DNA from: Eledone cirrhosa
Taxonomy: Eukaryota
Direction: 5' to 3'
Assembly (NCBI GenBank): GCA_964016885.1
Contig: OZ024743.1
Coordinates: 377,766,001-377,830,000 of the forward strand
DNA: 64,000 nt
The notes under the pieces were generated by a model. The model was given only the letters and a program-made list of their open reading frames with translations. It searched no databases and had not been told where the DNA came from. A program made the translations under genes and the position numbers. Positions 15,258 through 53,514 of the stretch are shown piece by piece (positions within the stretch are counted from its first letter, which is position 1; the number at the start of each line of letters is the position of its first letter).

Positions 15258-15428
15258 AAAGTTTTATTTAAGATTGTTGGGTTACAACGAGTAAATATTT
15301 TATAACTGATATAAAAGCACTCGACAGTTTCTGGAGTAGGTTTACGATATTCAAATCAACTTTTTTAAAAGGAAGTTGCATTCTCAAAAGGTATGTCACT
15401 AATTATTTATAAAACAGCTTATGTATTG

Positions 15429-15494
15429 TATTTTGTCTGAGGAAGGCATAACATATTTTTAATATGATATCCCAGAAATATATATAACGAAATA
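15429..15494 (+). ncRNA. Minimal type I hammerhead ribozyme, same family as 14729
   Basis: TATTTTGT-CTGAGGA-stem II (CATATT/AATATG)-GAAA-TATATA-TA-ACGAAATA; downstream ATATGGTTTTATAAATATAGTTTCCATTT shared with the 14729 copy. Confidence 0.6.
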
Positions 15495-15526
15495 TATATG
15501 GTTTTATAAATATAGTTTCCATTTGT

Positions 15527-15582
<56 letters not shown>

Positions 15583-18500
15583 ATACACACACATACATAT
15601 ACCAACGTTTATATATATATATATGTATACACACACACACACACACACATACATAAATGATTATATATATAACTAGTTTTTCACATAACTTTGTGAGGCA
15701 GAACAGCACTGTTCTTCGCACATCGGCTGGTGAGCCAGGGTGGGGGTTATAGCACTTAAAGGTCACCGACTATAAAACAAACACACACAGGATCATGATA
15801 ACTGGCTACTCGTCATGCTAGCAAAGACCAGTACAGGCATGGCGAAGCTACCTAAATATATATGGTGTGGGGAATCAAAGACTCATGGAATTGAGAGGTT
15901 CCCTTTTAGCCTGCAATGGATAGGACTGAGTGACGAATGAACTAAGTCAAAAGAAGGTCAACCTAACAATCTCTACTGCTGCTGCTGCTGCTGCCATGAT
16001 AAAATGCACCCTGTTTACTTGGTTGGTGTTAAGACATCCAGTTATAGAAACCATGCCAAAATATGGAACTATTGTCATACTAGTTTTGAGCAAACCCTCA
16101 CAAATGGATGAGGCTTTGGAGGTGATGCAGTTCATAAGAATGATTGGATAATGAGTGTAGTACTAAGGTCGATGCAGCGTTGGGGTAGGCAGGTTGCTAG
16201 TTTAGCCTTATGTTAATGTATTTCTAAAGATTCTGCCTATAATTTTCAAATCATTTTGAAAATAAACAAGAATTTGTTATTATTAAGCTGTTGTTTGGAG
16301 CATAAATTAACAAAGGTTCTTATATAAAAATATGTTGAAAGGATTTCATATAGATACATACTTTAAAGGTGAGGAGTTGGCAAAGTCTTTAAATTTAAGT
16401 ATGTATTGTATAGTATGCTTTACAGGGTTTACGCCGGCTCTCTGAGTTCAAATCCTGCTACGGTCAACTTTGCCTTATCCTTTCAAAGTTGATTAAAAAA
16501 AGTACCAGTCAATTGTTCCTCTGTGGTTTTTTTTCCCCCCTCTCAATGACTTTTTCTTTCCTTCATTGTCATCATCATCAGTTTTACGTCCACTTTTCCA
16601 TGCTTGCATGAGTTGGACAGGTCCTTCTGAACACAGCATCTCTACAATTGTCACGTACCTTCATCATCTCCTCTACCAGTCTTAGCGATTTGAGGTCAGC
16701 TCTCACAACCTCTGCTCAGGTCTTTCTTGGTCATCCTCTATTGCGGCTTCTTTCCTGTGATTTCCTGGCATTTCTTCACCCATCAGTCATTATCCATTTA
16801 CCAAATTATGTAAAGCATAACCTTTCCTTCTCTGAGAGAAATCAGCTATATTCAGACCTGGAGATGGAATGGGCTCCACCAGGTTTAAAAAGATGTCCAA
16901 GAAATGCTCTGTCATTATGGTGCCCCTACAACTCCAAAATATTCTTTAAAATATACACTTTTATATCATAGAACCAGGTGTGATATCAGGTGGTTTGGTA
17001 TCAAAAGAGGGGTAACTACAACAAAGATTGTAGCATACTCTTTTACTCTTTTACCTGTTTCAGCCATCCGGCTGAGGCCATGCTGGGGCACCGCCATGTT
17101 GATGAATAAATCTTTAGTTGGATAAGCTGGAGTGGAGGTGAAAGGGGTATGATTTGAAATATGTAACAGCAGCAGCACTGTCCTACATAAGTAAACTGTG
17201 TTTTATTGTATTCCTGTTTGTAGTGGTGGGTGTAGATCAGTAATTGTCCAAGTCATATGAACTGTGTTTTATTGAAGATTGGGCTCTCCTTTAATAATAG
17301 CAATTAGGTGAGGCTAGATCAGTAATTACATTGATAGTGATAGTTGCGAATAATAGTAGTTGTAATTAATGACTTGATTTATCTCTGACCATATGCAATA
17401 ATTTAAAAGATAGTGGCAAGGACTCATTCTTTCTTATATACACATATATGCACTAGGTCCGAACATAGAACCAAACTCCCACAGCCTCGGTTTCTCCCAC
17501 TCTCCCTATTGTGAGCAAATGGGGTCCACATGCTGGCAGCCTTGGAGGACAGAATAGAGAAGGCATTTCCCCCAGAGGATGGTGAGACGAGCTGAGCTGA
17601 AAGAGCCATTCCAGCTCACGGGGTTCACACTGCCACTAACCACAGTTCTAGACATATGAACTGTGTTTTATTGTAGGTGAGGCACTCCTTTGAGTAATAG
17701 CAAGTAGGTAAGGTGTAGATCAGTAATGTGATGAAGTTTATTTTCAAAAGATAAATAAATATGAAAAAGAAAGATAAAAGCAAAATTAACTAATGGGGAA
17801 GAGGTAAAGAAGGGCAGATCTAGCTGTAGAGGAAAGGACTATGTAAGCCATAGTGGGGAAAAGCAAGGACTCTAGGGCCACACAAGAAACAACAACCAGC
17901 CCGCTCCAATTACTAGTATGTTGGTGACATACATCACTGAGCTTCAGCCGTTGTATTACATAGTTTCTTTATTACTATATGTGTTTGTGTGTGTGTATAC
18001 ATATCTGTGTTTACATTTATTGTTTATATCCTATAACTTAGCAGTTCAACAAAAAGAAATTGATAAAATAAGTACTCGAGTTGATATGTATGATTGACTA
18101 AATCTCTTCAAAACAGTAGCCCAGGATGACCCAAATCTAATGACTGAAGTCAGTAGAAGAATATGTGTGTACAAATAAGCCCACTTCTGTAGATCTTAAG
18201 TCAGTAAATTATGGTCAAATTCTTTGTTTTCATGATCTATAGGCTCTGCTGTACTTCAGGCACTATCCAAATACTGGTCGCTCTTTGACAGCTTTGCAGT
18301 CGAACCCGGAACAATAGAGACTTCTGGTGTTCTTGGCCCTAGGACCACCTCCCTACTCACCACCATCGACAAGGAGTTGGCAACCCACAGGTGTGAGCCT
18401 CACGAGCTGGAATGGCTCTTCCAACACATCTCTCTCACCATCCTCTGGGGAAACACCTTCTCTATTCTCTCCACCGGGACTGCGGGGTGGCCAGTGCGTG

Positions 18501-19820
18501 GGCTCCCATTTGCATATAATAGTGAGAGATGGGGAGAGCGAGAGAGGCGGTGAGTGAAAGAGAGAACATCAACACCCACACAACTTACACAACATATACT
18601 CTACAAGACCCAATAAAACAACATAACTCACTTATCTTTGTGTTATTGTCACTGGTCTAATTTGTGTAGATTATTCTGATGAATTTCTGAGCCTACAGGG
18701 ATTTAACAAAAGAAGTATTTTTATTAATGTAAGTAAATGATGTTATGGCCTTAAGAAATGTTTTCTCTTATAGTTATTCTCTATACCACTGGAGAAAACA
18801 TTTATTTAATCTACATTAAATGCTTATAGCAGATGCAGCCTGGTCAAATGGTTAAGATGTTTGCTTTGCATTCATTAGGTCCATTCATTATTATAGCCTT
18901 GGGTCAACCCAGGTCTTGTGCGTGAAATTGGTTATCAGAAACAGTTTGGAAGCCTGTCAGATGGAATGTACCTATAATTAAAAAACTGGCCTTCTCACAC
19001 TATCAGGCAGAATCTCCCTGAGAATTACATTAAATGTACATGTCTGTTGAATGCTCAGGCATTTGCATGTTAATTTCATAAGCAGACTTTTGTTGATCTA
19101 ACAACTGGAATATTCATCATCAAAACTGATTGAGGTTCATTTGAAATTCCTATTATAAATACATTAACCCTTTAGCATTTACATTACTCTATGCTATTAT
19201 ATTTTCACGGTAAAGGTTTTACCTCACATAATATAAAATCTATGTGATTTTGATATTTATTTTGAGAACAATACGTTAACATCAGTATGTGTGGCCGGTT
19301 ATGGCAGGTTTGAACACAAAGAGGTGAGAGAATTCTGTTTCCATAACTTTATATGATTAGATGTCAACTTCGTTAGTAGCAATAACAATAGGTTTCCGTA
19401 ATCAAAGTCTTATCAAGTGTATGTGTATGCATTGGCGCTCTCTCTCTCTCACTCTCCCTATCTTGCCCTATTATATGCAAATGGGTGCCCACAAGATGGC
19501 CATCCCACGGCCCCAGCTGACAGAATAGATAAGGCGTTTCCCAGCTAGAGGGGGAGGGAGACATGTGGGAAGAGACATTCCAGCTCACAAGGCTCACACC
19601 TGTAGGTAGCCAACATGCCGATGGTGGTGAGTAGGGAGGTGGTCCTAAGGCCAGGAGACTTCTGGTATCTTTGGCCCTAGGACCACCTTATATGATTAGA
19701 GATTCACATTTTATTTGCCTTGGCCCAAAAGACATTAAAATATTTCCATTTCAGCCAACCTCTAGCCTTGATCATACTCTGACATGTTTTTATTGTTTTC
19801 CTCCAGAAACTAGTGCAAAG

Positions 19821-19895
19821 ATGGCTGATGAACAAACTTCCACCAATAGTGGTAATGGTGACAGTAATAGCACAGGAAACAGAAGCACTGTATTG
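19821..19895 (+). CDS. TMEM33: TMEM33 coding exon 1 (MADEQTSTNSGNGDSNSTGNRSTVL)
   Basis: Acceptor TTTTCCTCCAG ends 19806, AAGATGG start context, donor GTAACT at 19896 in phase 0 matching the next exon. The N-terminus is not conserved, so this exon is less certain. Confidence 0.7.
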
Positions 19896-20700
19896 GTAAC
19901 TAATCCAGTTTTTTTTATATCATTTATTTCTGAAGTTTGTAAATTCATATTAACTCATTAACTTTTTTTAACCCAACCCACTGAAGCAAGCCTTAAGTTC
20001 TAATACAAAACCTACCATTTTAAAATGTCCATATTTAAATTAAAACTACCCATCATAATTCTAGGTTAGACTTTTTTTTTCCAGTCACCTGCTTAATAAT
20101 TGTTTCTATTTTAGGCACAAGGCCAGCAATTATGCAGTACATTACTGGTACTTTATTTTATCGACCCCATAAGGATAAAAGGCAAAGTTAACCTCGGCGG
20201 GATTTGAACTCAGATCATAAAGGGATGTAACTATGCTTCAAAGCATGGTGTCCGACTCTCTCCCGATACTGCCAATCCACCGCCCTTAATAATGATTTCT
20301 AATTTAGACACAAAGCCAACATACACATCACATGTCCATGTCAGCGCATTCTCCTCTCCTGCACAATGCATCTGATCTCTGTCTATATATCTTTTAATTA
20401 AACATAACACTTTACTTTACTGTCTGTAACATGTGTGCACTTCTTGTAGATATTGCATAATTATAACCATGTAATTAAGGAGTATACTTCACACCGTGGT
20501 TTTGAGTTCATTTCCACAGTGTTAATAGCAAGTGTCTTTTACTATAACCTCAGGTTGTGATTGAAATTTACTAGACAGAAAGTGTAGAGGCCTGCAATGT
20601 ATGTGTATGTATATATATTATAAAGAGTCAGAACCTGACAGCTGAACTCTTGCCATTTCAAAAGCTAGTTCCTCCAGCGTTTGTCTAGTCTATTACTAAG

Positions 20701-20760
20701 AAATGGTAGAGCACTTGCTTAGCATGCAAGAGGTACTGGGATCGATGCCCAGATTCTCCA
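20701..20760 (+). pseudogene. 5'-truncated tRNA-Ala(AGC)-derived sequence
   Basis: AAATGGTAGAGCACTTGCTTAGCATGCAAGAGGTACTGGGATCGATGCCCAGATTCTCCA has the D-loop, anticodon stem CTTGC/GCAAG with AGC and T-arm, but lacks the 5' acceptor strand. Confidence 0.8.
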
Positions 20761-20770
20761 GCGTTTGTCT

Positions 20771-21567
20771 TGTAGAAGATCACGCCACCTAGCTTTGACT
20801 TTGGAGGCAGTCGATTAACTGCCCTTAGTTCTGACGTCAGTAGCTGAATAAACTCTCTCTTCGACTTTTGTCTCTAGAGGCGAACAGACATGTTTCACGG
20901 TGGCGAAATAGTAATATCACGTCGGGGTCACCACTTTACAGCTTGTACAGGAAACACTTTATAGTGACTCCAGTACTTTATTAACCATATTTCTAATGAA
21001 GTACACTGCCTAAATTTTCAATTAATTTCTAAAATAATCAAGAATTACTATTGAACTATGAAAATAACTTCAAAAGAGAATATAAAGAGAAACCAGAATA
21101 ACACAATATAAACACAAGCATAGTTAATGTTTAGGAAGATGGTCACCATTTTAGAAGGCTTCATTGTTTTTACGATTTAGAGGAGAGTTCGTTTCCCTAG
21201 CTTGGCTGGTAGAACATCTCTACTATTTGTTGTTAGGTGTAGGTACACAATTAAGCAAATAAAAAACATACCTCGAGATTATATGTACATGAGCATTTTA
21301 ATCAGAGCAATTAACAAAACGGGTTATCATATCAGTTGTTCCTAGGTTGGTAATTCGTAATTACCATTAATTGGCGGTCTTCAATTATCCCGTGACCGCA
21401 TGGTGTGCTATCGCTGTTTCACCACTGTGAAACGCGTCTGTTCACCTCTAGAGACAAAAGTCAAAGAGAGAGTTTATTCAGCTACTGATGTCAGAACGTG
21501 ACATCAGAACTAAGGGCAGTTAATCGACTGCCTCCAAAGTCAAAGCTAGGAGGCGTGATCTTCTACA
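20771..21567. mobile_element. Non-autonomous DNA transposon with about 150-bp TIRs (Ginger-like termini)
   Basis: TGTAGAAGATCACGCC ... GGCGTGATCTTCTACA; 4-bp TSD GTCT at 20767-20770 and 21568-21571. Confidence 0.75.
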
Positions 21568-21717
21568 GTCTCTCTCTCTCTGTATATATATATATGTATA
21601 TGTGAGGTGTCTACAGAAGACCACAAATTAGAGTAGTACTCAATGCATGATGAGATGCAGAGTGGGTACAGTGAAGACGTCTTCATTATATCATTAACAT
21701 GTGTATATGTGTGTGTC

Positions 21718-22058
21718 ATCATCATCATCATCATTTCATTTTACGTCCACTTTTCCCTGCTTGCAAGGGTGGGACGAGAACTGATTCTGGCTTGATTTCT
21801 ACAGCTGGATGCCCTTCCTAACACCAACCTCATTTTACAGTGAGTGCTGGGTACTTTTTTGCCGTGGCACCTCCATGACCACTTTGCAGTGGAATGATAG
21901 GGACCGCAGTCCCTATCATCTCATTTCTACAGCTGAGTAAACTGGAGCAATGTGAAATAAAGTGTCTTGCTCAAGGAAACAACACATCACCCGGTCTGAG
22001 GATTGAACTCACAACCTTTCGATTGCAAGGCTCTAACCACTAAGCCATGTGCCTCCAT
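21718..22058 (-). mobile_element. CORE-type SINE with (ATG)n tail; same family as 30543-30886 and 48672-49057
   Basis: Reverse complement of the 30543 copy, with near-identical head, core and 3' end. Confidence 0.85.
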
Positions 22059-22530
22059 GTGTGTTTATATATCCATTTGTCTCTGTGTTGGTGTCCTGTA
22101 ATTTAGCAGTTTGACAAACAAAAATCAATGAAATAAGTACCTGACTTGGAAAAAACTAATTAAGTACTGGGAATCAATATGATTGACTAGACACCTTTAA
22201 TTTGGTACCCCAGCATGGCTGCAATCTAATGACTGAAACCAATAAAAGAGAATAGTGTAACTTTTTTTTATTATTTTCTATATATATATTTCCCAAGAGA
22301 TGGCAACATGAATAGACCTGTTATTTTTCTCTAAAAAAATGTTTCCGTCCTCCCTGTCTCCTCAATCTTTTTATTTCTTCTTTAATTTCTCACTCTATTT
22401 TCTGATGAAGGACTAACGTCCGATATGTTAAGACACTTTTCCTACGATATCAAGTGTGAAACTAATATATTTCTTCCTTGTACTGTTTCGTTTTCATATA
22501 TATATATATAACTGAACTATTCTTTTCTAG

Positions 22531-22625
22531 AATTACATGATGTATAATAAGGTGGCTGCTAGTCTGTGGATTACTCGTCTAATGACTGTTTCGTTTACTA
22601 TCCTATTTATTTTACCAATATTTGG
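22531..22625 (+). CDS. TMEM33: TMEM33 coding exon 2 (NYMMYNKVAASLWITRLMTVSFTILFILPIFG)
   Basis: TTCTTTTCTAG acceptor, GG|GTAAG donor; matches the TMEM33 first TM region (W..RL.TV...LF.LP..G). Confidence 0.9.
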
Positions 22626-23200
22626 GTAAGTTTACTTTATTTTTCTGCTGCTAATTTTAACTCTTATAACTACTCAATTATCAATATCCAGTGCAAAAAA
22701 AATTATTTATTGTTTTTTTTTCAACTTAGTTAAGAATAAATGTTTGATATATAAAATTGTTTTCTTATATATACATATGGTGGCTGCCAACTCGTTTTCG
22801 AGTACGGCCACTACTTTATATCCATGTAGGAGAACCCCTACCGATGCGCTGAACGAGTGTGACTTTTTAGTCCAGCCAGTGACTTGAAAACTCTGGTACA
22901 AACACTACACTTGTGACAATTATTGACACATAGTGCTGGGCCCATGGTACCATGTGATGACATATACATACATACATACAAATATATATATTTATATATA
23001 TATCATCATCACCATTTAGTGACTATTTTCCACGCTAGCATGGGTTAGACGGGTTATCCTACTTGAGGCAAGGCGAGGTCAAATGACCATGTCTTGCTTA
23101 TACAGAATTAATTTTGGCTTGGTTTCTATGACTGGATGCCCTTTCTAACACCAATATATATATATATATATATATACATATGTTTATATATATGTATATT

Positions 23201-23658
23201 ATATATTTGATTTGCAAAGTCTTTGATATGAAATCGTGTGTTGAAACAAATATTGTTATACTTGGAGAGGGTCATATTGTTGTAATAATATTGAGAAATA
23301 ATAACAGAACACATTGTTTGGTTGGTTTTCGCTTCTGTATCTTTTATATCTCCATAGTTAATTTATTTGTCAATCAATGTTTATCATTGATTGACCAACG
23401 GTTAAAAATACAGATATAAATATATATATATATATATATTTATATCTGTATTTTTAACCGTTGGTCAATCAATGATAAACATTGATTGACAAATAAATTA
23501 ACTATGGAGATATAAAAGATACAGAAGCGAAAACCAACCAAACAATGTGTTCTGTTATTATTTCTCAATATTATTACAACAATATGACCCTCTCCAAGTA
23601 TAACAATATTTGTTTCAACACACAATTTCATATCAAAGACCTTGCAAAACAAATATAT
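23201..23658. repeat. Near-perfect long palindrome (about 218-bp arms) centred on a (TA)n tract
   Basis: 23201-23418 and 23440-23658 are reverse complements with about 3 substitutions; the ORF track gives nearly the same peptide on both strands. Confidence 0.95.
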
Positions 23659-23661
23659 ATA

Positions 23662-26070
23662 TCAACGTCAGTATGGATTTATACGAACTGGATTACTCCC
23701 TGAAGAACATTCCAACTCCCTCCAACCATGTTTACCAAAAGCTCCTCCTACAAAAAGCGGAAGATGTCGTCAGACGCTTAAGATGGCAAGCCCTAGCTTT
23801 TGACTGCAAAATTACAGGCACCAACAAAACCTTCAACCTGAAATCGAGAGGTAACTGAACTTGGCAACCTCCTAAGGTAACTGAACTTGCTCCTTTCAAG
23901 ACGGACCTTCTTGACTTAGTCGCTAACATTTCCTTTCGCAAACACACTAACAAACGAAACTCAGAAATGATATTAAGAAATTTAGGTCTTCTAATAACAC
24001 CTTCGTTCATTCCGACAAAACTAATAATATTTACGAAGTCGACAACACCACTTTCCGCCACCTGGCCCATAACGTTATTACTTCTAAATATAAGAAAGCT
24101 AACCCTATGGCCTACCACGACATTAATACAGAAGCCAAGGAACTTGCCGCCGACCTTAAGGTAAATAAGAAGCTACAATCTCTAGCTAAGCGTGAGGCGT
24201 TCCTCACCCTGAAAGATCACAAAGTAGACTTTACTTCTAACCCTACATGTAGACTAATAAACCCGACACGCACAGATATGGGACTAGTCAGTAAGACCAT
24301 ACTTAGAAACATAGTTAAGACCATTAGGACCAAGTCCAACCCGTCCCAGTGGGAGAACAGCGACTCCATAATTAAGTGGTTTAACCCCTTAAAATCCAAA
24401 AAGGCGAAGTTCACACAGTTTGACATTGTCGATTTTTACCCGTCGATCTCAGAGACCCTGTTAAACAAAGTGTTGAACTTCGCTACCACCTATACCACCG
24501 TCGATGGTTTAGATAGGGAAATCATCGCTCACTGCCAGAAAACTCTCCTCTTCAACGACGGAGTAGCTTGGGCAAAGAAGTCTATAACTTCAGACCTGTT
24601 CGACGTCTCCATGGGATCGTTTGACAGTGCTGACGTATGCGACTTGGTTGGCCTATTTATCTTAGACATATTACGTGTTAGATTCCCGGACTTCCACACG
24701 AGAATATACCGTGACGATGGATTGACTTTATCGAGCCATAAAAGTGGTCACGACCTCGACCGGTTTAAAAAAGACTTAGCTTCTACCTTCAATGAGTTAG
24801 GATAACAATAGCTACCAACCTCTCTAGCGTAGATTTCTTAGACATTAATTTAGACCTTCGTACACACACCCACAGACCCTTCCATAAGCTAAACGAGAAA
24901 CTCAATTACATTCACAAGGACTCATGCCACCCTCCCACTGTTTTTAGAAACTTTGTTAAGAATATCAGTACTAGAATCTCAAACCTCTCCTCAAATAAAG
25001 CTATCTTTGACGGCGGCACCCTACTATAACACGGCATTGGCTAACAGCGGCTTCTCACAACCTATCACTTACTCTCCCACTAGCAAGAACACCATTAAGA
25101 AAAGTAAGCGCAACGATAGACAAACCATCTGGTTCTCTCCTCCCCTCTAACTCAACGTTAAAACCAATGTAGGAAAAAAATTTCTAGCCCACTCAGATAG
25201 ACACTTTCCTATATGTCATAAATAGCGCTCCATCTTTAACCGACACAAAGTTAAACTAGGATACTCCTGCGCTAAGAACATGAAGGCCCACATCACCAGC
25301 CCTAGGAGCAACACCCCACCAGGGTGCTCTTGCCGTAGGCCCGAAGCTTGCCCCCTTCAACAGCAATGCAACACACCAGCTGTAATTTATGAAACTGTGG
25401 TCACTTCCAACCGACCAAACGAACCACAGGAGGTCAAATCCTATGTGGGCATGGCGGAGGGCCGATTTAAGGAACATTTCCTGAACCACCAGTCTACCTT
25501 CAGGTACCCGGACAGACGTTCATCCACGAAACTCGCGAGCCACGTATGGTCCCTCAAGGACTCAAGTATAGACTGCTCCATTCAATGGAAAGCCATCACT
25601 AAGTCCAAGCCATACGCAAGGGGAAATCCGACGTGTGGCTTATGTATTGACGAACGAATAACTATTCTAAAGAGATTTCGCAATAGTGATTGCCTAAACA
25701 CGAGAAGTGAATTTTTCACACGTTGTCCACACGTTACCAAACATCTATTGCATAACTACAAGGCTCCGGACTGATTCCTTGTAATTTTATTTTCAACTAA
25801 AAACTTTTCGGACTTTCACAGTTATCTCCCTTACACCTCTCGCACACATTCTAGTATTGCCTGTGTGAAGTGACCGGGTTTCTGTGCATGCGCGTTCATA
25901 CGGTTGTCCTTCCTGTTCCGTATAACCATGCCCATTACGAGCTGAGGATCCGCTAAGGTGAAACAATTGTTCTCGGTATGGTGAACTAACTGTTGTGTAA
26001 CCACTTCTACCTAACTTGTCCCATGGACTGAGTGCTTTACCACTACAGATATTACCTTCCAGTGTTCCAC

Positions 26071-26077
<7 letters not shown>
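23662..26077 (+). mobile_element. Penelope-like retroelement (RT + C-terminal GIY-YIG; Naiad-like), near full length, inactivated by frameshifts and stops
   Basis: ATG 23673 YSLKNIPTP; K.HK...PTCRLINP; FDIVDFYPSI; FDVSMGSFD; IYRDDGL; CSC-x5-CPL-x3-C; VIY...YVGMAE..FK.HF.NH; CGLC..E; RSE....CPH; flanked by (TA)n. Confidence 0.92.
25932..25981 (+). ncRNA. Minimal hammerhead ribozyme in the 3' UTR of the Penelope-like element
   Basis: CCAT..CGAG-CTGAGGA-TCCGCTAAGGT-GAAA-CAATTG-TT-CTCG..ATGG; palindromic stem III CAATTG. Confidence 0.7.
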
Positions 26078-26103
<26 letters not shown>

Positions 26104-27015
26104 GGTGTTAGAAAGGGCATCCAGCCATAGAAACCAAGCCAAAATTAGTTCTGTATAAGCAACACATGGTCATGATAAACATTGATTGCCAAATAAATTA
26201 ACTATGGAGATATAAAAGATACAGAAGCGAAAACCAACCAAACAGTGAGTGTGTTCTGTTATTATTTCTGGCAATATTATTACATAATATGACCTTAGGA
26301 TTTGCATCTACAAAGTTCTCCTCTGAGGTACAAATCTGGGTACAAGGTTGTTTGTGGAAGACCAGCAGACGCCGGTGTATACCAGTCTCCCCTCTCCACA
26401 CCACCGATGTTGTCCAAGGGAAAGGCAATGGCCGATACAGCTTGGCTCCAGTGACATTGCAACTGATTTCTACAGCTGAGTGAACTGGCGCAATGTGAAA
26501 ATATTGTCTTGCTCAAGGACACAACGCATCACCCAGTCTGAGAATCAAACTCACAACCTCATGATTACAAGCCCAACGCTCTAACCACTCTCTCTAAAAT
26601 ATATGTGTATATATATAATTGTTCCTACTTTTGGCACAAGGCCAGCAATTATCTCAGTGCATTACTGGTGCTTTATTTTATCAACCCAGTAAGGATAAAA
26701 GGCAAAGTTAACCTCAACAGGATTTGAAATCAAACAGTAAAGGGCCGTAACTTTATGCTGCAAAGCATGGCGTTCAACCCTCTACCAATACTTCCAATCC
26801 ACTGCCCTTATATGTATATATATAAAGTTGTAGTTCCTGTCTATGGTTTTGGAGATTGACCCCCCATAACCATATATATTCTGAAACTACATTGCCCAGG
26901 GTACTTGGATAAGTATATTTCATTTTAATCAAAAGGTTCCCCGGGGGGCACAAACCCTGCTGAAAATGTTTTCCGTTCGATTTATATGAAATTTAAACCA
27001 TAGGTAAATGACAAG

Positions 27016-27060
<45 letters not shown>

Positions 27061-28297: not shown

Positions 28298-28328
<31 letters not shown>

Positions 28329-28391
28329 GTGTGTATATGTAGTTATATATATATAATATATATGATGATGGGGATATTATTTTCTTTTCAG

Positions 28392-34090: not shown

Positions 34091-34124
34091 GTAAGTATTT
34101 ACTCTTGATTTATATTTAACTCTA

Positions 34125-35780
34125 AGATATTTAACTATATTACATACGAGGTACTTAAATATATTACATACAAGGTATTTAACTATATTATATACAAGGT
34201 ATTTAACTATATTACATACAAGGTACTTAACTATATTACATACAGGGTACTTAACTATATTACATACGAGGTACTTAAATATATTACATACAAGGTATTT
34301 AACTATATTACATACAAGGTACTTAACTATATTACATACAAGGTACTTAACTATATTACATACAAGGTACTTAACAATATTACATACAGGGTACTTAACT
34401 ATATTACATACAAGGTACTTAACTATATTACATACAGGGTACTTAACTATATTACATACAAGGTACTTAACTATATTACATACAGGGTACTTAACTATAT
34501 TACATACAAGGTATTTAACTATATTACATACAGGGTACTTAACTATATTACATACAAGGTACTTAACTATATTACATACAGGGTACTTAACTATATTACA
34601 TACAAGGTATTTAACTATATTACATACAGGGTACTTAACTATATTACATACAAGGTACTTAACTATATTACATACAGGGTACTTAACTATATTACATACA
34701 AGGTACTTAACTATATTACATACAGGGTACTTAACTATATTACATACAAGGTATTTAACTATATTATATACAAGGTACTTAACTATATTACATACAGGGT
34801 ACTTAACTATATTACATACAGGGTACTTAACTATATTACATACAGGGTACTTAACTATATTACATACAAGGTACTTAACTATATTACATACAGGGTACTT
34901 AACTATATTACATACAGGGTACTTAACTATATTACATACAAGGTACTTAACTATATTACATACAAGGTACTTAACTATATTACATACAAGGTACTTAACT
35001 ATATTGCATACAAGGTACTTAACTATATTACATACAAGGTACTTAACTATATTACATACAGGGTACTTAACTATATTTCATACAAGGTACTTAACTATAT
35101 TACATACAGGGTACTTAACTATATTACATACAGGGTACTTAACTATATTACATACAAGGTACTTAACTATATTACATACAGGGTACTTAACTATATTACA
35201 TACAAGGTATTTAACTATATTTCATACAGGGTACTTAACTATATTACATACAGGGTACTTAACTATATTACATACAGGGTACTTAACTATATTACATACA
35301 AGGTACTTAACTATATTACATACAAGGTACTTAACTATATTACATACAGGGTACTTAACTATATTACATACAAGGTATTTAACTATATTTCATACAGGGT
35401 ACTTAACTATATTACATACAGGGTACTTAACTATATTACATACAGGGTACTTAACTATATTACATACAAGGTACTTAACTATATTACATTTAAGGTACTT
35501 AACTATATTACATACAAGGTACTTAACTATATTACATACAAGGTACTTAACTATATTACATACAAGGTACTTAACTATATTACATACAAGGTACTTAACT
35601 ATATTACATACAAGGTATTTAACTATATTTCATACAGGGTACTTAACTATATTACATACAGGGTACTTAACTATATTACATACAGGGTACTTAACTATAT
35701 TACATACAGGGTACTTAACTATATTACATACAAGGTACTTAACTATATTACATACAGGGTACTTAACTATATTTCATAGG
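34125..35780. repeat. 24-bp minisatellite (GGTACTTAACTATATTACATACAR), about 69 copies, filling TMEM33 intron 5
   Basis: Direct inspection; highly homogeneous tandem units. Confidence 0.97.
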
Positions 35781-39060: not shown

Positions 39061-39554
39061 CCAGCCATCAGAACCATGCCAAAAATGAAATGTATGAGCA
39101 AGACATGATTATTTAACATTAGGAAGAGCATCCAGCCATCAAAACCATGGTGAAAATTAAATGTATAAGCAAGACATGATTATTTAACCTGTCTAGTCTC
39201 AAATCATGGCCTAAAATTCAGCTTATTCCTGAGACACTGTAGACATATCTGTGTGCTCAAGGAGCTCCCTTTGCAACCACATCTTCAAATTCAATCCCAC
39301 TGTGTGGCACACTGAGCAAGTCTCTTAATATATCCACAAGTTGACCAAGGTTTTGTAAGTGGAACTTGAAACTGTAGAAACCAGTCATGCATATGTACTT
39401 GTGTGTATGTATCCCAGTGTTTAACTCTTTAGCATTTACATTACTCTATATTTTCTATTGTATTTTCAGAGTAAACACTTTATCTCACATAATATTGAGT
39501 CTACAAATGTGGTAGTTCTGAAATTTTGCGTCTAGAAATCTAGACTAAATACAT

Positions 39555-40290
39555 CTACTGATGAGGGAGGTAGCCCTAGGGCCGAGGACACCAGAAGTCT
39601 CCACTGCCAAGGGTACGACCGCCAACCTGTCGGAGAGTGACCGATATTTGGAGAGTTTGGCCTCCTCAGCCCGACTTGCAGCAGAACCTGGGTTGGTCGC
39701 AGACTGCACCAGGTTGCGGCTGGAGAAAGTGTCGGTGCAAGTGGCATCCCAGACGAGGTGTTTGCCACTGCAGAACGGGAAGATGGTCATACCATCTGGC
39801 CTTTTGCTGTCCCTTCCGTCCAGCCCCACCGACTCGAGCTGGGAAGGGAAGCCTGCAGCATCCAAGCCATGCTTTATGACCTCGCTGAGGGCAGCATGGT
39901 GTGGAAGGCGGCCGGCACCATGACGACAGGAAAGCGGGTGGAGGCCGAAAGAGTCCACGGTGGATCCATAGCAACTTTGGTGTGGCTTGCAGATCCGGAG
40001 GCCAAGCTGCAAGGAAATGCCGATACGCAGGCTATTGTTATCCAGCTGCGTGCCAGTGGAGAAGGAGGGCAAGGCATGGAGCCAGGCACTACTGTGGGGT
40101 TTGGAGGCCACATGAAAACAGGCAAGGCGATGCTGGCGTGTGAGCCACGCTGCACTGGATGGCATCCAAAATGCTTTGGGGGGACTTGACGTCTACTGGG
40201 CTAAGTCCCAGCCGGACCCACGTCTCACAGGCAACCTTACATTCCCTGATCACAGGGTTTTATTGTGTTTTGGAGAACCCTGCTGACAAG
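39555..40290 (-). mobile_element. CRE-clade retrotransposon 3' fragment (zinc knuckle + REL endonuclease)
   Basis: ORF 39545-40165 SAWLHALP...KRPDGMTIFPF...WDATCTDT...AEEAKLSKY...VPLAVETSGVLG. Confidence 0.88.
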
Positions 40291-40317
40291 GACGTGGCAT
40301 GAGGTTATCGATAGATA

Positions 40318-44270: not shown

Positions 44271-47257
44271 GTGATGAGACACACAATAGTGTGACATAGT
44301 GAGATAACACACTTGACTGACTCTAGTGAGATGACATACTAATCTGACTCAAATGAGATGATAAAGTAATAGGAAACAACAGTGTAACACAATTATGTGA
44401 CATAGTGAGTGACACACTCAGCCTTGTGTCATCATGAAAATATTCTTTAACCCTTTAGCATTTAAACCAGCTATATCCAACCAGAATTCTCTCACCTCTT
44501 TCTCTTTAAACTGGCCATAACTGGCCGCTTATACCAACGTTAAGATATTCTTCTCAAAATAAATAATATCATCAAAATCTCATAGATTCGATATTATGTG
44601 AAATAAAGCCTGTACGGCAAAAATACAATAGTAAATATAGAGTAATGTAAATGCTAAATTGTTAATCTAAATTCTCAACAAAGATAAACTTGATGCATTT
44701 CAATAGAACAAAATATTTTTTCCTTATAATGAAGATTGTCTCAAAGTGGTGGTCACAGTGGATTGATTGTTTAGATACCAGTGACTATTGTTGTATCCTG
44801 GACATTCAGTTTCATTTCCTGGTTGTAACTATGTCAATATATCCAAGTCACTCTCTTGCGAAAATCCATGAGCATCCAAAAAGCCGCATTTCACACTTCC
44901 TTCTAAGAAGCTCAATATCAAATCATCTGAAACTGCCCATGGTTCTAGACTTTATTTTAAAGTGTTTATAATTTATCTAAAAAATTTCCATCATAATTTA
45001 TGCAAGAACAATATTAGAATTTGTTTTTTTTGCTCTAACATAGTGGATACATAATAGTTTAATAAGGTTGTTTGCTTGCAAATGAATCAAATATTATTAT
45101 TTGATATAAAACTCACAAATACATTTTAAGAAGTTATGCTCCAAATGCCTAAGGAATAATGAGTAAGTTATATTACTAAACCCCTACCAAATTTTTTATT
45201 ATTTTCAAATTATTTGGAAATCATGTGGTTGGTGTTAGAAAAAGGTACCCAGTCATAGAAAATTTGCCAAACAAAGAGTAGAGTGGACTCTTCAATTGTT
45301 CCAAAAGACATGACGACCACCCCGGTGCTGAGCCCACACTAAAATGCACTCAGTCAAGTGTGATTATCATCAGCTCAATTACGTACTGACTTGGTTTGTG
45401 ATAAGTCATACAGCCCTTCCTAGCAGGGAAAACAGACATTAAATTATATATATATATATTTTATATATACACATATATATTGTTTGAGTTCCTTGGACAA
45501 TGTACAGTATTTCTTTGAGACATGGTAGTGACTATGGATGCATGCCTCTACCTCTATTGCCACCACTGACAGACACTGAATAACTATTGGTAGCTTGGCC
45601 TGTCACCTGGAGACCCGCATAATAGAGAGTAGAATCTTCCAAATACATGGCATGACATGTAAAATGTTGCATTCGACAACAGACCCAGGCTTCGTTGCCC
45701 GACATGCTTACAAAATCCGAAAACAGTACAGCTCCCCTGACTTTCGGAAACATTTTTCATGCTCATAGTTACTGAAGCATGGAACAAACTACCTGCATCA
45801 GTTGTTAGCTGTTGGGACACTGCATCCTTTAAAACCTCCATGCTTCCTGAAATTCGCCAATACTACACCTGATATCCCCCCTCCATACACATGCACACAT
45901 GTATATCATGACTCGTACACTGTTTACTTTCCTGACATTTGTACATTATTCTATGTACTATACATGCACCTTTGACGAGTTGCAGTGCACCTAAGCACTG
46001 TACACAATAATTTCATTATTATTATTAAAATATATTTATTAATTTATTAACCAGCTTGAGGCTATTGTTGACAATGTAAGAAAACAAAGCTTAAGTTAAT
46101 TGGTGCCATACCTATCATTTGGTTTATAGCTCATAAAATGGTTTGATCACCTAATACAAATGCCAATTGGCTATCTAGCTATGTGTGGCTATAACACTAA
46201 GTGCTCAGACTTCAAAGCCAGAGGTGGACCACACTAGTAGTGGATAGACAGAGTCACAGACATGCCCCATACCCACAACATTACACTACTACAAGCCAAC
46301 CTTACACTTTGTGTGTGTGTGTATATCATGACTCATACACTGTTCATTTTCCTGACATTTGTACATTATTCTATGTATTATACATGCACCTTTGATGAGT
46401 TGTAGTGCACCTGAGCACTGTACACAATAATTTTTATTAAGATTATTTGCTGCAGCTCACCAACTTCACTCCAGGCCTTCCTGGTAGAAGTGCCTGAATC
46501 AAAAACTAAACAATAATAATAATAATTGTTTCTAATTTAGGCACAAGGCCAGCAATTTGAAAGGAAAGGGAAAGTTGATTAAATCGACCCAGTGCATTAC
46601 TGGTACTTTATTTTATCGACCCCCGTAAGGATGAAAGCAAAGTTAACCTCGGCGTGATTTGAACTCAGACCGTAAAGGGCCGTAACTCCATGCTTCAAAG
46701 CATTGTGTCCGACCCTGATTTCTTTATAAGCTACAAAGGATTGATATTAAGGATATCACAGGATGATGCAGTGTGCGAGTTTTTTGTAAAGAGTATAGCA
46801 ACAGAAACAACAACAAACATGTAAACATTCAAACAAAAATAAAATTACCCAATAAGGAGGAAGACTTTCAAGGGTCATTCACAAAGAAAGCCCACAAAGC
46901 CTCATGGACACGCTGACCGCTAGTGCAAATGCCCCCTCCCAGCTGTCCTCCTCAAATGTACAGACATAGTTTAAAAGAAGACGGAAAATAACTTCAACTT
47001 AAAATATAAACTTGATGATAGTGTCTGCCCACGAAACATTTTTTTTTTTTTTTTTTTTACCAAGCTGTTTACTATAAGAATGATACTAGCGTAGGTTATT
47101 TATTCACAACCAGCCAATTAATACTAATTATATATTTTTTTTTTTTTTATTTTTAAATTGCTTCTGTGTTTGTAATTGCATGTTATTTTTGTGAAGTGTT
47201 TTTTTAATAAATAGTAAAAGAAAATATTATTAATTGAGCAAAATAATATGTATATAG

Positions 47258-47305
<48 letters not shown>

Positions 47306-47306
47306 T

Positions 47307-47359
<53 letters not shown>

Positions 47360-47504
47360 TTCAAGAAACAAGTGAATTGGCCTCATATTCTAAACAAAGG
47401 GAAGGTGTATATTTGTAAGACAAACCATACGCTCCCATTGAAAACATAAAGGAAATGGTAAGTGGTACTTCATGTAATTAAAAACCACCCATCCTTTGGG
47501 AATG

Positions 47505-47530
47505 TGACGTCAGTATCGGGGCTATATTGG
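47505..47530 (+). promoter_or_regulatory. Candidate CRE palindrome TGACGTCA with overlapping TCAGT Inr-like motif and reverse CCAAT, upstream of the PLPP ATG
   Basis: TGACGTCA at 47505-47512, about 90 nt 5' of ATG 47599; motif match only. Confidence 0.3.
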
Positions 47531-47598
47531 CTGTGTTGTGAATAAAACATCAATGATTGAAGAATATAGAATCATTGTAAAGAAAAGACATTGACAAG

Positions 47599-47707
47599 AT
47601 GACAGCAACCAATAAGTGTGCAGCTTACTCTAACTTGTGCAATCCGAAGGACATCTTGGGATTGACTCCACTCAATCTGATAATCGATGGACTTATATGG
47701 ATTTTTG
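47599..47707 (+). CDS. Phospholipid phosphatase (PAP2/PLPP, wunen-like) probable coding exon 1 (MTATNKC...LNLIIDGLIWIF)
   Basis: AAGATGA start; ends G|GTAAGT in phase 1, joining the exon at 58729 in frame; a hydrophobic ..ID.. segment opens TM1 as in PLPPs. Confidence 0.7.
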
Positions 47708-48369
47708 GTAAGTATTTACAATGTAAATTTCATTTATATATATATAGTAAAATACCCAGCAAATCTACAGTCCTTGCCGGAACAGGTGTGACACATGGCC
47801 AACCCTGGCCAGATCTTCCCCCCATCATGGGCGACCTGTCTAACCCATGCAAACGTGGGAAAATGAACAGTAAACAGTGATGATGATGATATGTGCGTTT
47901 GTATGTATAATCAGTTCTGTGTGAGTGAAACACTGTCCTCTGACCTGATCTCACACAATGGGACAGCCTGTCCTACTCATGCTAGCATGGAAAATGGATG
48001 TTAAACGATGATGATGATGATGATGATGATGATGCACAGGGCCAGATTAAACGGGTTTGGTAAAGAGGATGATTGCCCCAGATTCCCTGCAATAGGGGAA
48101 CCCACCAGTGACAGCCATAGCAATCTATTTGTGTCCTCAGCTGAGCTTTTTAGTTTTAGGATGGTTAGAAATTTTGAATTTAATATCTGTATAACTTTTC
48201 AATTCCGATAACTTGTGCCAAGCTAATTTTGATATGTAAAATTGCAGGGATGCTGTGTATTTTTTGTGTATGAGGGGCTCCCTAGAGTGCCCCGGGCTTG
48301 CTCAAGATCTAAATCCAACCACATGTATGCATGTTCTAGTTTATTATTTTTTCTTTTAATCTCTCACTG

Positions 48370-48400
<31 letters not shown>

Positions 48401-48671
48401 ACCAGTTTGTAACATTAAAAACAAGACTCTTTCGTTGAAATCTAGACATCAACTAGACAATTATGTCTGACTGTCTGTATTTGTGTGTACATGTATGGAC
48501 GCCATGCCATTGCATATGTGGATCTGTCTGCTCATATACAGTCACAAGTCAAATATATTGATGCATTATTATAAGTAAATGGGGGCCCAGCCCAACCCCC
48601 TACCCCACCCCGTGGCCCCAGCAGACTAAAACAGGGAAGGCAACTCATATCGTTGTTTATTTATATGTTGT

Positions 48672-49057
48672 GAAGGCACATGGCTTAGTGGTTAGAGCAT
48701 TGGGCTTGCAATCAAAAGGTTGTGGGTTCAATACTCAGACCGGGTGATGTGTTGTTTCCTTGAGCAAGACACTTTATTTCACATTGCTCCAGCTTACTCA
48801 GCTGTAGAAATGAGATGATAGGACTGGGACCCCTATCATTCCACTGCAAAGTGGTCGTAGAGGTGCCACGGCAAAAATGCATCCAGCCTATACTATAGAG
48901 TGGATGTGTAGGCGCCACGGAAAAAAAGCACCCAGCACTCACTGTAAATGAGGTTGGTGTTAGGAAGGGCATCCAGCTGTAGAAATCAAGCCAGAATCAG
49001 TTCCCGTCCCACCCTTGCAAGCAGGGAAAAGCAGACATAAAATGATGATGATGATGA
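48672..49057 (+). mobile_element. CORE-type SINE flanked by an about 196-bp direct duplication
   Basis: Same family as 30543; flanks 48472-48668 and 49058-49253 are near-identical. Confidence 0.88.
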
Positions 49058-50039
49058 TGTCTGTATTTGTGTGTGCAGGTATGGACGCCATGCCATTGCA
49101 TATGTGGATCTGTCTGCTCATATACAGTCACAAATCAAATATATTGATGCATTATTATAAGTAAATGGGGGCCCAGCCCAACCCCCTACCCCACCCCGTG
49201 GCCCCAGCAGACAAAACAGGGAAGGCAACTCATATAGTTGTTTATTTATATGTGTGTATATGCAGTTATTACATTCTAAATTTCTCATATTTTATAAACA
49301 TTTTTACAGTTCCATTAATCGACTGTATTTGTAATTTCCTAATTACCTAATTAGCTGCACTCTTTATAGTTTTGACATCCCAGCTTTTAAAGATTTGTAC
49401 TGAGGCAGTTAGAAACATATCCAAGTATCCCAATGACAATAGGTACAGATCAAATAAAAATAGTCAAGGTGAAATATTTGCAGGTTCCTTATTAATTCAG
49501 CACATATATTCTCCTTTTCGTTAATTTTTAACACTATATTAACATCTGTATGTATGTATATACATATGTACATACATATGTACACATGCATGCTTGCATA
49601 TATATATGCATGCATACACATATGTATATATATAGATATGTATGTGTGTCCCAGGTTCAATTAGGGGTAACCACAGTAAGTAAGGTACTCAATGCATAGT
49701 AGAGTATATTAAACATAATATATATATATTTATGAATGTGTATGCATGTGTGTATGTATATATGTCTGATCTAGTCTCTTCCCACCATCATTGCGAAGTA
49801 TGTGAGGGATCATGGACAAAAGCAGTAATGCTAATCTATAGGATGGCCTTGCTCAGTATGTAGGAAAGGTGTAGGTAGGAATTCCATCTTCTGCCCCAAA
49901 TGCAAACTATTGGTACACAAGAGATGTAGTGGGATCTCAGGAAGCTTAGTTAAGAATGTAGGCTTTACATGTAGCAGCTACACTGGGACAGTAAGCAGCA
50001 AACAGTCACAGGAAACAAGCACTACCAAACTCTGGTAAG

Positions 50040-50857
50040 GCTCTGTAGAAACAATAGACAGCTTCTGTTACCTAGGTAACCGAATTAGTTCAGGGAGCTA
50101 CTACCACTGCTAGCTGCAAAAGGCTTTTCCCTCAAAATGAAAGGCAGACTGTATGATGCATGCATACGAACAGCAATGTTACATGGTAGTGAGACCTGGA
50201 CGCTGTGTGTAGAAGACATGCATAGACTAGAAAGAAACAAAGCTTGCATGCTCCGATGGATGTGTAATAGTAATATACACGAACAGCAAAGCATAAACGA
50301 ATTGAGAGAGAGACTGAGCATAAGAGGAATCAAATGCTGTGTGCATGAGAGGAGGTTGCGTTGGTATGGACATGTGATACATATGAAGGATGATAGCTGC
50401 ATAAAAAGGTGCAGAGCACTAAAAGTCATTGGAAGCCTTGGAGTGGGGAGACCCAAGAAGACCTGGGATGAGGTGATAAAAGCTGACCTTACCCAATTGC
50501 ATCTTTCAAAGGCGATGACACACGACTCGACTTCCCACGGGTACAAACCGAAGCTAAAATATATAGACAATATGACCCCACCCCCTCCCACTGCAAAGTG
50601 GTCATGAACGTGTCATGATAAAAAAGCACCCAGCCCACATTGTAAAGTGGACATGTAGGCGCCACAGTAAAAAAGCACCCAGTACTCACTGTAAATGAGG
50701 TTGGTGTTAGGAAGGGCATCCAGCTGTAGAAATCAAGCCAGATCAGTTCCTGTATGAGCAAGACAAGGTCACCCGACTTGACATTACCCACAACAGGACA
50801 ACCCATCTAACCCATGCTACCGTGGATGAATGTACGTAAAACGGTGATGATGATGAT
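50040..50857 (+). mobile_element. RTE LINE 3' fragment (related subfamily) with (GAT)n tail
   Basis: ORF 50137-50607 KGRLYDACIRTAMLHGSETW...RLRWYGHV...GRPKKTW. Confidence 0.88.
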
Positions 50858-50861
50858 ATAT

Positions 50862-51040
50862 ATAATATTGAAATGGCTTCTATAGGACTAGAACCGTTTC
50901 ATTCGAAGGAAATCATGTGGATGATTTCCTTCAAATGAAACAGTTCTAGTCATATAGAAGCCATTTCTATATTAAATATTTATAATCTTCTATGTATTGA
51001 GTACCTTACCTACTGTGATTACCCCCCGATTGAACCCGAC
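50862..51040 (+). mobile_element. Fold-back element E (hairpin with 4-nt loop plus tail); shorter relative at 53318-53463, tail-only copy at 49650-49715(-)
   Basis: AATATTGAAATGGCTTCTATAGGACTAGAACCGTTTCATTCGAAGGAAATCAT-gtgg-ATGATTTCCTTCAAATGAAACAGTTCTAGTCATATAGAAGCCATTTCTATATT. Confidence 0.7.
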
Positions 51041-51370
51041 ACACACACACATATATATATAAATAAGAAAGATCCCAGACATCATTCACATACCAAGTGG
51101 TGTTGAACTATTCATATTGATCTAAGGAAACTATGTTTCCATTGGTATTTCCTTTGGAGATACTATCTATTGGTGAAAACTCCTAGCAGAAAGAGTAGGA
51201 TGAGATAAAGGAATGTATATTGTGTATAAATATGGGAATTTGGTGGGAATTTAGTGATATATGTTGTATAGACATAAAATGTTTAATTTCCAATCAAGAA
51301 CAGCTGTAACACTAACACAAAAAATATGAGAGAAATAACCATACAGACATCAACATATATATATATATAT

Positions 51371-51691
51371 ATATTATAGATAACGAGGAATAAGTGATGC
51401 ATCAAAACGCAATTTATTAACATATTATATATGTTTCTCCAACGATCAGCTCAAGGCAGGATCTATTATAGATCGAACCTGACTCTGCATTCACAAGTTC
51501 CTCAGATATGTTTAGCGTTTTCAAACCATTTCATCTGAACTGATCGTCAGAGAAACATATGTTATATATTAATAAATTGTGTTTTGATGCATCACTGATT
51601 CCTCGTTATCTATAATAATATACTCTGCTCTGCACGAGCATCGAGTGCTCAAATGGCATACCGCCTATGGTCGAATTTATTGCAACCATAC
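51371..51691 (+). mobile_element. Fold-back element D (about 82-bp arms, 3' half hammerhead GAAAC-ATAT-GTT, tail)
   Basis: 51371-51452 is the reverse complement of about 51536-51618; flanked by (TA)n. Confidence 0.7.
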
Positions 51692-51708
51692 TATATATAT
51701 ATATATAT

Positions 51709-52095
51709 AATGTAGGAGGTGAGTTTTATTGTAGCACAATAAAGCTATGCAAATATCGGATAAGTAGCACTCAACAGTTTATTGGACTGGAGTATATATA
51801 AGAAGAAATTAAAAGATGGTTAAAAAAGTTCCATGTATTTTATTATGCGCATTTCAAAAACAAATATCATCCTGGGACGATATTTGCGTTCTCATCAGAT
51901 GAAGGTAGTGTCTAATCAACGTTGATTAGACACTACCTTGCTCACAAGTGTTTTTTTTTTTAAGCTTCATATCATCTCTCCCTATTTTATCTGATGAGAA
52001 CACAAATATCGTCCCAGGATGATATTTGTTTTTGAAATGCGCATAATAAAATACATGGAACTTTTTTAACCATCTTTTAATTTCTTCTTATACAT
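51709..52095. mobile_element. Fold-back element H (about 105-bp arms; tail on the left; intact hammerhead overlapping the right arm)
   Basis: 51794-51900 is the reverse complement of 51989-52095; internal perfect 38-bp palindrome at 51902-51939. Confidence 0.8.
51983..52053 (+). ncRNA. Type I hammerhead ribozyme with intact core; predicted cleavage after AUA at 52045
   Basis: Stem I TATTTTAT/ATAAAATA; CTGATGA; long stem II ACAAATATCGTCC/GGATGATATTTGT; GAAA; palindromic stem III TGCGCA; TA. Confidence 0.8.
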
Positions 52096-52110
52096 ATATA
52101 TATATATATG

Positions 52111-52473
52111 TGTTGTGTAGAGAGAAGGAGAGCAATAGGTTATAATGGTTGACGAGCTTTTGGTTGTTATGCTGGTGTAGTCTGTGGCCAGAGAAGGTGA
52201 GTAGTCTGCAGACCAGGAGAGAGAGAAAAAGATCTATAGAAATATGTAGACCTCTGTAGACCCCAAGGGGTCTGTAGAAAGTGAATGTTTCACATAGTTA
52301 CTTTCTCGTGTACTGCTCCGAGGTGTTTTTGATTGGTCTGATACAGGCTATTTATATCTGTCGCCTCGAGGAATCATCGCCCATGCATAGACTTGTTTAT
52401 CCGAAAAGGAGGTGACCCAGAATTTTACCTTTCTGTGTCACCCAGGGTTCAAGGTGTGGACAGATTTCGCTAC

Positions 52474-52474
<1 letters not shown>
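52111..52474 (-). mobile_element. Probable solo LTR inserted in (TA)n
   Basis: Minus strand begins TGTAGCGAAA and ends CACAACA (TG...CA), with internal TATAAATA. Confidence 0.45.
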
Positions 52475-52508
<34 letters not shown>

Positions 52509-52554
52509 TAAACAGGTATATAGATAAATGCATGTATATATATATATATATATA

Positions 52555-53160
52555 CTAGTAGTGGTACCCGGCGTTGCATGGGATAAGGTATTTTGGAACG
52601 CGGGCTGCCAACAGACCTAATCATGGAAAAACTGCATGCCTGGACAATATGTAAAGAAAATAAACCGAATACTCTGATGGCTGGATAATCTTTAAGATTT
52701 TCCTCGATGAAGCAGGAAAAATGCAGGTTTTCACCTAATGCAGGCCTTAGGGGATCAAGAAAATGAATTTTTTTTAAGTGCATAATATGCCTTCAAATTT
52801 TTGGAAAATCGGCTAGACGTAACGCCTCAAAAAAGCCCTAAAAGCTGAAAAAATGAAGTTTTTCGCCTAATGCGGGACCTAGGCCATAAAAAAGTTGGAT
52901 TTTCTTTGCTCACGGTATGAAGAAGAGACTAACTAATACATAGTTACAATTTCAAGGAAATCGGTCTGACGTGACACCTCAAAAAACCCTATAAAACTGA
53001 AAAAACGCAGTTTCACCTAATGCGAGCCCATATTACTTATGTTTCACTCCCTGAAACATAAGTAATACACATGTAAAGTTTGAAAGAAATCGGTTGGGCA
53101 CTTCTCGAGTTTTAGGGATTCAAACTCACACACACACATCCTCAGTTTTATATATATAGA
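52555..53160 (-). mobile_element. Non-autonomous Helitron-like element (second family)
   Basis: Minus strand A|TCTATATATATAAAAC ... GCCGGGTACCACTACTAG|T; internal subrepeats. Confidence 0.6.
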
Positions 53161-53514
53161 TATGTGTGTGTAAATATGAATAACTGTGAGTCTAGTTTTG
53201 TGGTGGCCTATAAGTACTTTGTCTACACACATACACAGACATATATTTATAACTATATATATAGATATAGATAGCTATAGATATAATATGTGTATGTGTT
53301 TAATATTATTGTTTAATAAATGAGTTCTACAAGGCTAGAACTTTTTTATAAAGAACAGTTCTAACCCTGTAGAAGCCATTTCTATATTTTAAAATGTTTA
53401 CACTCTACTAATGTTTTGAGTACCATTTTTAATTGTGTTTACCCCCCGATTTTACTCGTGATCTATACACACACACGCACGCACACATAAATAAATAAAT
53501 AAATATATATATAT

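Follow-up and report, generated by a model that had tools for sequence, protein, structure and literature searches.

Why should repeats with different tails, scattered over one stretch of the Eledone cirrhosa genome, share a motif just ahead of the microsatellites that they abut? The stretch, hereafter the window, comprises 64,000 nucleotides (nt) of contig OZ024743.1 (positions 377,766,001 to 377,830,000). A preliminary description had reported that the octamer YGAGTRCY, usually preceded by a hexamer, links a Penelope-like element (PLE) to a set of short mini-elements, and had read it as a conserved cis signal for reverse transcriptase (RT) recognition, 3'-end formation or promotion of the tandem copy. 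Judged from the sequences, the octamer makes up the 3' side of a bulged hairpin predicted to form in RNA, rather than part of a linear hexamer-plus-octamer motif. We propose, with a probability of roughly 0.6, that this hairpin, found in the tail and 5' untranslated region (UTR) of Hydra-clade PLEs, docks the element's RT, so that copying starts 6-8 nt 5' of the hairpin. It is apparently a new cis element in a known clade, undescribed in print; no description was found in the literature searched, with subscription journals, figures and Repbase notes lying outside that search.

The motif and its predicted hairpin

All eight octamers and a variant at 12466 lie where the preliminary description had placed them (its minus-strand coordinates are the low ends of the sites), and all nine sites fall 33-61 nt ahead of a microsatellite, close to the claimed distance of about 34-60 nt. 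The tails had been called unrelated, which does not hold for those at 49684, 50998 and 53417; because these three are 74-84% alike and form one family, the window contains seven tail types rather than nine. YGAGTRCY has 17 matches in the window, eight of them in the pre-microsatellite zone, which covers 6.4% of positions (about 1.1 expected). This test is post hoc, and we therefore repeated it out of sample on 40 evenly spaced 10-kb stretches of the genome (400 kb) with the pattern RCTC-N10-24-GAGYRCY. There, 29 of 47 matches have a microsatellite 25-90 nt downstream; the reversed control has 13 matches, of which 1 is so placed. An inner helix of at least 3 bp occurs in 23 of the 29 pre-microsatellite matches and 3 of the 18 others; the one control match in that position has none. 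Genome-wide, the pattern has 299,507 matches against 76,600 for the reversed control, a count that takes in unrelated repeats. The octamer alone is unspecific, since nine of its 17 window matches lie away from tails, mostly inside other repeats.

The upstream hexamer that had been proposed as the octamer's partner does correspond to a real upstream half, which is better written as RCTC plus the first helix bases; at 26029 the upstream word is CTTCTAC-like, and the true partner of that octamer lies at 26014. In the predicted architecture, RCTC leads into a helix of 2-5 bp and a variable apex (from 3 to over 100 nt among hairpins), followed by a 3'-side bulge of 1-2 nt, by GAGY, which pairs with RCTC, and usually by RCY.

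Covariation argues for this fold. We took 235 distinct matches with no stem filter and clustered them by downstream sequence only, giving 32 groups and 23 left/right combinations; the bulge is TT in 18 of the 32 clusters, TC in 5 and TA in 4. Across the 23 combinations, 55 of 69 cells pair, compared with 37.9 +/- 3.0 after shuffling (0 of 20,000 shuffles), and all three pairs are present in 15 combinations rather than the shuffled 4.2. Clusters with two or more members pair in 37 of 39 cells, and alternative bulge lengths pair less (27/66, 18/63, 22/84 and 36/84). In a second set of 21 sequences (19 of the 32 clusters, hand-chosen for short loops, plus two from locus L261), 94% of cells pair against 76% in the control, five of eight pairs vary on both sides, and one base pair alternates between A-U (12) and G-C (9). 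RNAalifold arrives at this fold as well. On the sense strand, G-U cells outnumber A-C cells 10 to 2, which points to the sense RNA as the structured molecule. Among 51 copies of the window's coding family, the sole strongly split position sits in the loop. A model built from the hairpin alignment, with two window copies in its training set, ranks the nine noted sites as its top nine window matches and finds nothing else under E 1. The claim of a conserved cis signal common to coding and short elements is supported, with RT recognition as its best reading; a linear DNA motif or internal promoter is not, because the two halves covary as a helix with sense-strand G-U pairs. Readings as a small nuclear RNA-type promoter or a selenocysteine insertion sequence were also rejected.

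A tRNA-SINE-like repeat (SINE, short interspersed element; window 1876 and 9801) contains ACTC...GAGTACC with the inner helix absent, probably by coincidence; its central domain resembles Meta/V-type SINE cores.

Parent elements and their two ends

The features of the coding element are as follows.

23663..26076, plus strand: Hydra-clade Penelope-like element, 5'-truncated inside its 5' UTR and flanked by (TA)n runs
25937..25976, plus strand: minimal type I hammerhead with core at 25942, predicted cut after 25971 and a palindromic stem III
26008..26076, plus strand: optional tail, bounded by a short end near 26007 and a long end at 26076
26014..26036, plus strand: predicted tail hairpin 1 of the coding family, with a 1-nt bulge, holding the 26029 octamer

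The element's open reading frame (ORF; ATG at 23673, stop at 25774) is interrupted by stops and frameshifts. It is a single RT ORF in which RT is followed by a GIY-YIG endonuclease (EN) at the C-terminus. DKG is replaced by DKT here and in 19 of 20 loci examined, with none found in one, and the part at 25226-25774 contains a CxCX5C linker and, near the C-terminus, CxxC and CxH; the N-terminal RWK motif reads RWR in the window family and RWK in two other families. Since DKT, CxCX5C, CxxC, CxH and the order RT then GIY-YIG are marks of the Hydra clade, we assign the element to that clade on these motifs and on by-eye comparison with reference proteins, among which it resembles Hydra-1_Obim. Taken with the repeat types, this likeness would point to an octopod as the probable host. 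The earlier suggestion of a Naiad element is rejected: the EN is C-terminal with none at the N-terminus, the motifs are Hydra-type with no DKA, and a canonical hammerhead is present. A Pfam scan gave nothing relevant, and an Rfam scan gave no match at gathering score and none at the motif sites, missing the window hammerhead.

The passages of Craig et al. 2021 (PMC8557442) drawn on here define the Hydra clade of C-terminal EN+ PLEs, including Hydra-1_Obim, and describe no tail hairpin. They agree with the window family in domain order, DKT, the CxCX5C linker, CxxC/CxH and hammerhead, and with the families studied here in (TA)n insertion, inverted 5'-truncated copies and a one-sided tail; the coding element itself has a hammerhead near its 3' end and (TA)n targets. 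Tails are 30-40 nt there, in contrast to about 60-90 nt here, and elements usually <3 kb, whereas several families here exceed that with 3' UTRs of 1-1.7 kb. The window family, at about 2.6 kb, is shorter than other families, which are longer through their 3' UTRs; its endonuclease has 55,262 candidates in the genome (150 scored).

Abutting the 5' end of the coding element, window 23200-23659 is a 99% perfect palindrome with 230-nt arms and a (TA)n centre; a portion of it, and a portion of the left flank, recur inverted at 26102-26294 on the 3' side. This arrangement suggests a rearranged target.

Copies of the coding family end in two places. Among 35 ends from 30 loci, 17 stop at about 26007, 17 at 26076 and one earlier. 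A 3'-end feature needed by every copy is therefore not supported: 17 of the 35 sampled ends stop just before the motif. In each of four inverted-pair loci (L012, L015, L024 and L029), a long arm is paired with a short one. The interval between the two ends, which is the known optional PLE tail, contains the entire motif. In tandem copies this tail forms the beginning of the 5' UTR, and in 15 of 25 near-full-length copies it continues into about 150 nt of 5' UTR and the ATG. Hammerhead-anchored clustering of larger families gives the same two-peaked ends. Counted from the first base of RCTC to the microsatellite start of short-ended copies, short ends peak at -6/-8 in the coding family (25 of 35), -7 in the 51773 family (37), -8 in a sister of the 12466 family (24), -8/-6 in the 50998 family (12) and -7 in the 51642 family (4 of 9). 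In five families, then, most of them fall between -6 and -8; four references show scatter or gave no data. (Families 15323, 21642 and 51773 are those of the minus-strand sites 15316, 21635 and 51766.) Copies do not end at the predicted hammerhead cut, which is 35-55 nt upstream of the short end.

A second GAGYRCY is found in 5' UTRs. By eye, it belongs to another hairpin (hairpin 2) placed shortly past the long end on its 3' side, with a spacing similar to that between hairpin 1 and the short end. We recognized this hairpin in contigs from other animals (L260, L261, L262, L268 and L270) and in six further families of this genome. L324, a chance junction copy of the 12466 sister family, carries a complete hairpin about 6 nt past the long end, again by eye. 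Hairpin 2 lies about 15-50 nt from the ATG, and hairpin 1 50-200 nt.

The remaining motif sites belong to the mini-elements.

12306..12517, plus strand: truncated inverted pair plus tail; palindrome 12306-12441, hairpin 12447-12473, sister family tied to a Hydra endonuclease
15255..15530, minus strand: inverted arm with hammerhead (+15437-15486) plus tail; hairpin 15337-15316
21596..21670, minus strand: tail standing alone, from an old family; hairpin 21663-21635, no parent traced
49650..49713, minus strand: solo tail, 50998 family; hairpin 49705-49684
50858..51038, plus strand: truncated inverted pair (50858-50979) with tail; hairpin about 50985-51005, forming the terminus of an autonomous Hydra family
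51366..51691, plus strand: inverted pair (51366-51622) plus tail; hairpin 51622-51649, parent untraced
51710..52096, minus strand: inverted pair (51793-52096) plus tail; hammerhead +51991-52045, hairpin 51793-51766
53354..53466, plus strand: tail related to 50998; hairpin 53402-53424

These are dispersed families with 565-3,927 candidates each (40 scored each), variable 5' ends and inverted arms that stop just ahead of the motif. A separate non-autonomous class is not supported for them; their sequences indicate that they are mostly 5'-truncated inverted ends of other families, with four of six tied to Hydra ORFs, one through a sister family. The 51773 tail follows a divergent Hydra endonuclease at 1.0-1.2 kb, two of the loci agreeing at 90% over 1.3 kb; its parent is a Hydra family whose 3' UTR measures about 1.1 kb. 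A 15323-type hammerhead stands downstream of one endonuclease family in three loci, with TA runs between; in 10 of 30 loci an ORF begins directly after the 50998 tail, and in L321 this tail comes after the ORF; and one locus has the 12466 sister 1,070 nt downstream of an endonuclease. No RT or EN could be tied to the 51642 tail, for which no junction copy was found either, and for the 21642 family L126 alone shows a Hydra-like EN, 1.1 kb upstream, with no second copy to confirm it; these two families could be non-coding.

Other classes were considered for the mini-elements. Hammerheads, variable 5' ends and ORF links speak against a MITE or Helentron reading. Variable 5' ends and inverted pairs likewise speak against non-LTR (long terminal repeat) retrozymes, that is, non-coding tandem units of fixed length, although the 51642 and 21642 families may yet be of that kind. 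In the passages drawn on here, retrozymes (Cervera and de la Pena 2020, PMC7229834; bioRxiv 10.64898/2026.07.22.740005) resemble our units as short hammerhead-bearing PLE-linked repeats, but they form tandem arrays, whereas our units are arranged as inverted pairs, their 5' ends vary, and four of six can be tied to coding families. Elsewhere in the genome, L202 (G000:C1:1241766-1244278) is a retrozyme-like 311-nt tandem array with a hammerhead core in every unit. The hammerhead-core pattern matches 458,151 times genome-wide and 162,736 times in the control, an excess over background of roughly 100 per Mb. The window also holds long 24-nt and 22-nt minisatellite arrays (34124-35778 and 60510-64000) and degraded pieces of non-LTR RTs from other clades, some of them RTE-like (7152-8446, 39545-40192 and 53503-55458).

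Distribution beyond the window

Families differ widely around the hairpin: their proteins are 36-46% identical and their flanks unalignable. RCY is not universal: three hammerhead families (L186, L193 and L223) keep the same bulged helix, preceded immediately by short ends, with base pairs or flanks changed; several other hammerhead families of this genome have no hairpin. Outside this genome, contigs with Hydra ORFs inside prokaryote assemblies of GTDB (L259-L276) are animal retroelement contigs that probably represent host contamination. There were 23 hairpin matches at E<0.05 in 27 of 31 non-host loci searched, of which 7 are training sequences, 3 near-copies of training sequences and 13 independent; L260 adds one more compensated pair. 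Six published Hydra consensi, compared by eye, include three with clear hairpins (coral Hydra-2_Amil and sea cucumber Hydra-1 and -2_Ajap) and a copepod consensus with an imperfect one. By eye, three octopus Naiad 3' ends have no such hairpin. Viral contigs yielded no relatives, and metagenome contigs yielded 13 loci, most without a 3' end, and one hairpin (L257).

A docking model and its alternatives

We propose the following course of events. RNA running from one unit into the next unit's 5' UTR would bind two RT molecules, one per hairpin, each priming on one nicked strand of the (TA)n target with the help of TA at the start point. A start at hairpin 1 would give a short, tail-less arm, and a start at hairpin 2 would copy hairpin 1 and give a tailed arm; the two complementary DNAs would then join at their truncated 5' ends, heavy truncation leaving palindrome-plus-tail mini-elements. 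We infer the binding and priming steps throughout, one docking hairpin per start being the simplest reading. The fuller claim, that the hairpin is present twice in Hydra-type elements and that each copy docks one RT of a dimer and fixes its start 6-8 nt upstream, we put forward tentatively, at slightly under an even chance.

This course resembles that of Poseidon PAc, as far as the passages of Frangieh et al. 2024 (PMC11167929) drawn on here go: RT starts at two internal sites bounding the tail, initiating internally on unprocessed RNA, and the protein, a predicted dimer, nicks and extends both target strands. There too the tail lies between two starts, downstream of a hammerhead and in the next unit's 5' part, and a stem-loop is involved.

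Several observations weigh against docking. TA-rich flanks blur the ends, one 50998 subfamily scatters from -19 to -2, 12466 itself is uninformative, and no short ends were caught for the 15323 and 21642 families. The hairpin-2 distances were taken by eye from printed sequences. Hairpin 2 of the window family is degenerate, with a long insertion and a mismatch, that of the 50998 family has no bulge or upper helix, and no junction copy was found for the 51642 family (seven matches, all into microsatellite). Two of the six published Hydra consensi have no hairpin by eye and apparently end at the short end. Families share descent, so the shuffle values are not probabilities, and relatedness inflates the controls. 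Finally, the RT start of PAc sits in an AC-rich stem-loop, and its protein-binding motif is unmapped in the same passages of PMC11167929.

The hairpins might instead bind element protein for ribonucleoprotein assembly or control translation, with ends set by adjacent internal TA microhomology. Both coding-family ends do map to internal TA dinucleotides, and hairpin 2 is close to the start codon. We nevertheless consider this unlikely: hairpin 1 is 50-200 nt from the ATG, and among the many TA steps of the UTRs a 6-8 nt offset is kept in five families with different flanks. Still less probable is that the hairpins direct an RNA cut or processing stop 5' of their base, the resulting RNA 3' ends being copied by 3'-end priming. 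The same offsets would be expected, and RNA sequencing read ends fall at the PAc tail boundaries in the cited passages of PMC11167929; the internal initiation on unprocessed RNA given there for that related clade, and a hammerhead cut unused as an end, argue against it. For a DNA-level signal, either an internal promoter driving the tandem copy or a site that the endonuclease recognizes, one could cite the invariant CTC and GAG, the frequent RCY, the location at the 5' UTR start and the tail requirement of the D. virilis endonuclease (as cited in PMC11167929). Duplex DNA, however, gives no cause for compensatory pairs, an apex of such variable length or a sense-strand G-U bias, making this reading very improbable. 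A functionless residue of descent among recently split families, which are indeed related and contribute three window sites from one family, is largely refuted by cross-phylum conservation with compensation in distant animals and by the divergence of proteins and flanks.

Structured RNA elements position RT in other systems, among them LINE (long interspersed element) 3' stem-loops, hepadnavirus epsilon and the telomerase template boundary. The likeness is one of role alone; unlike these, the hairpin described here is situated 3' of the base at which copying begins and is not itself copied.

Descriptions of the PLE tail go back two decades, and in 2024 it was connected with two internal RT starts. 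What sets those starts can be tested directly, given a hairpin some 25 nt long whose pairs covary and whose offset is fixed. The hairpin also offers a marker by which the many short palindromic repeats in genomes like this one can be classed as PLE ends, and possibly a portable tag for target-primed insertion tools. If true, the two-hairpin rule would account for the tail being one-sided, for insertions being inverted and for a partial tandem being needed; among the retroelements nearest to telomerase, the hairpin would then be the first template-positioning element to be defined.

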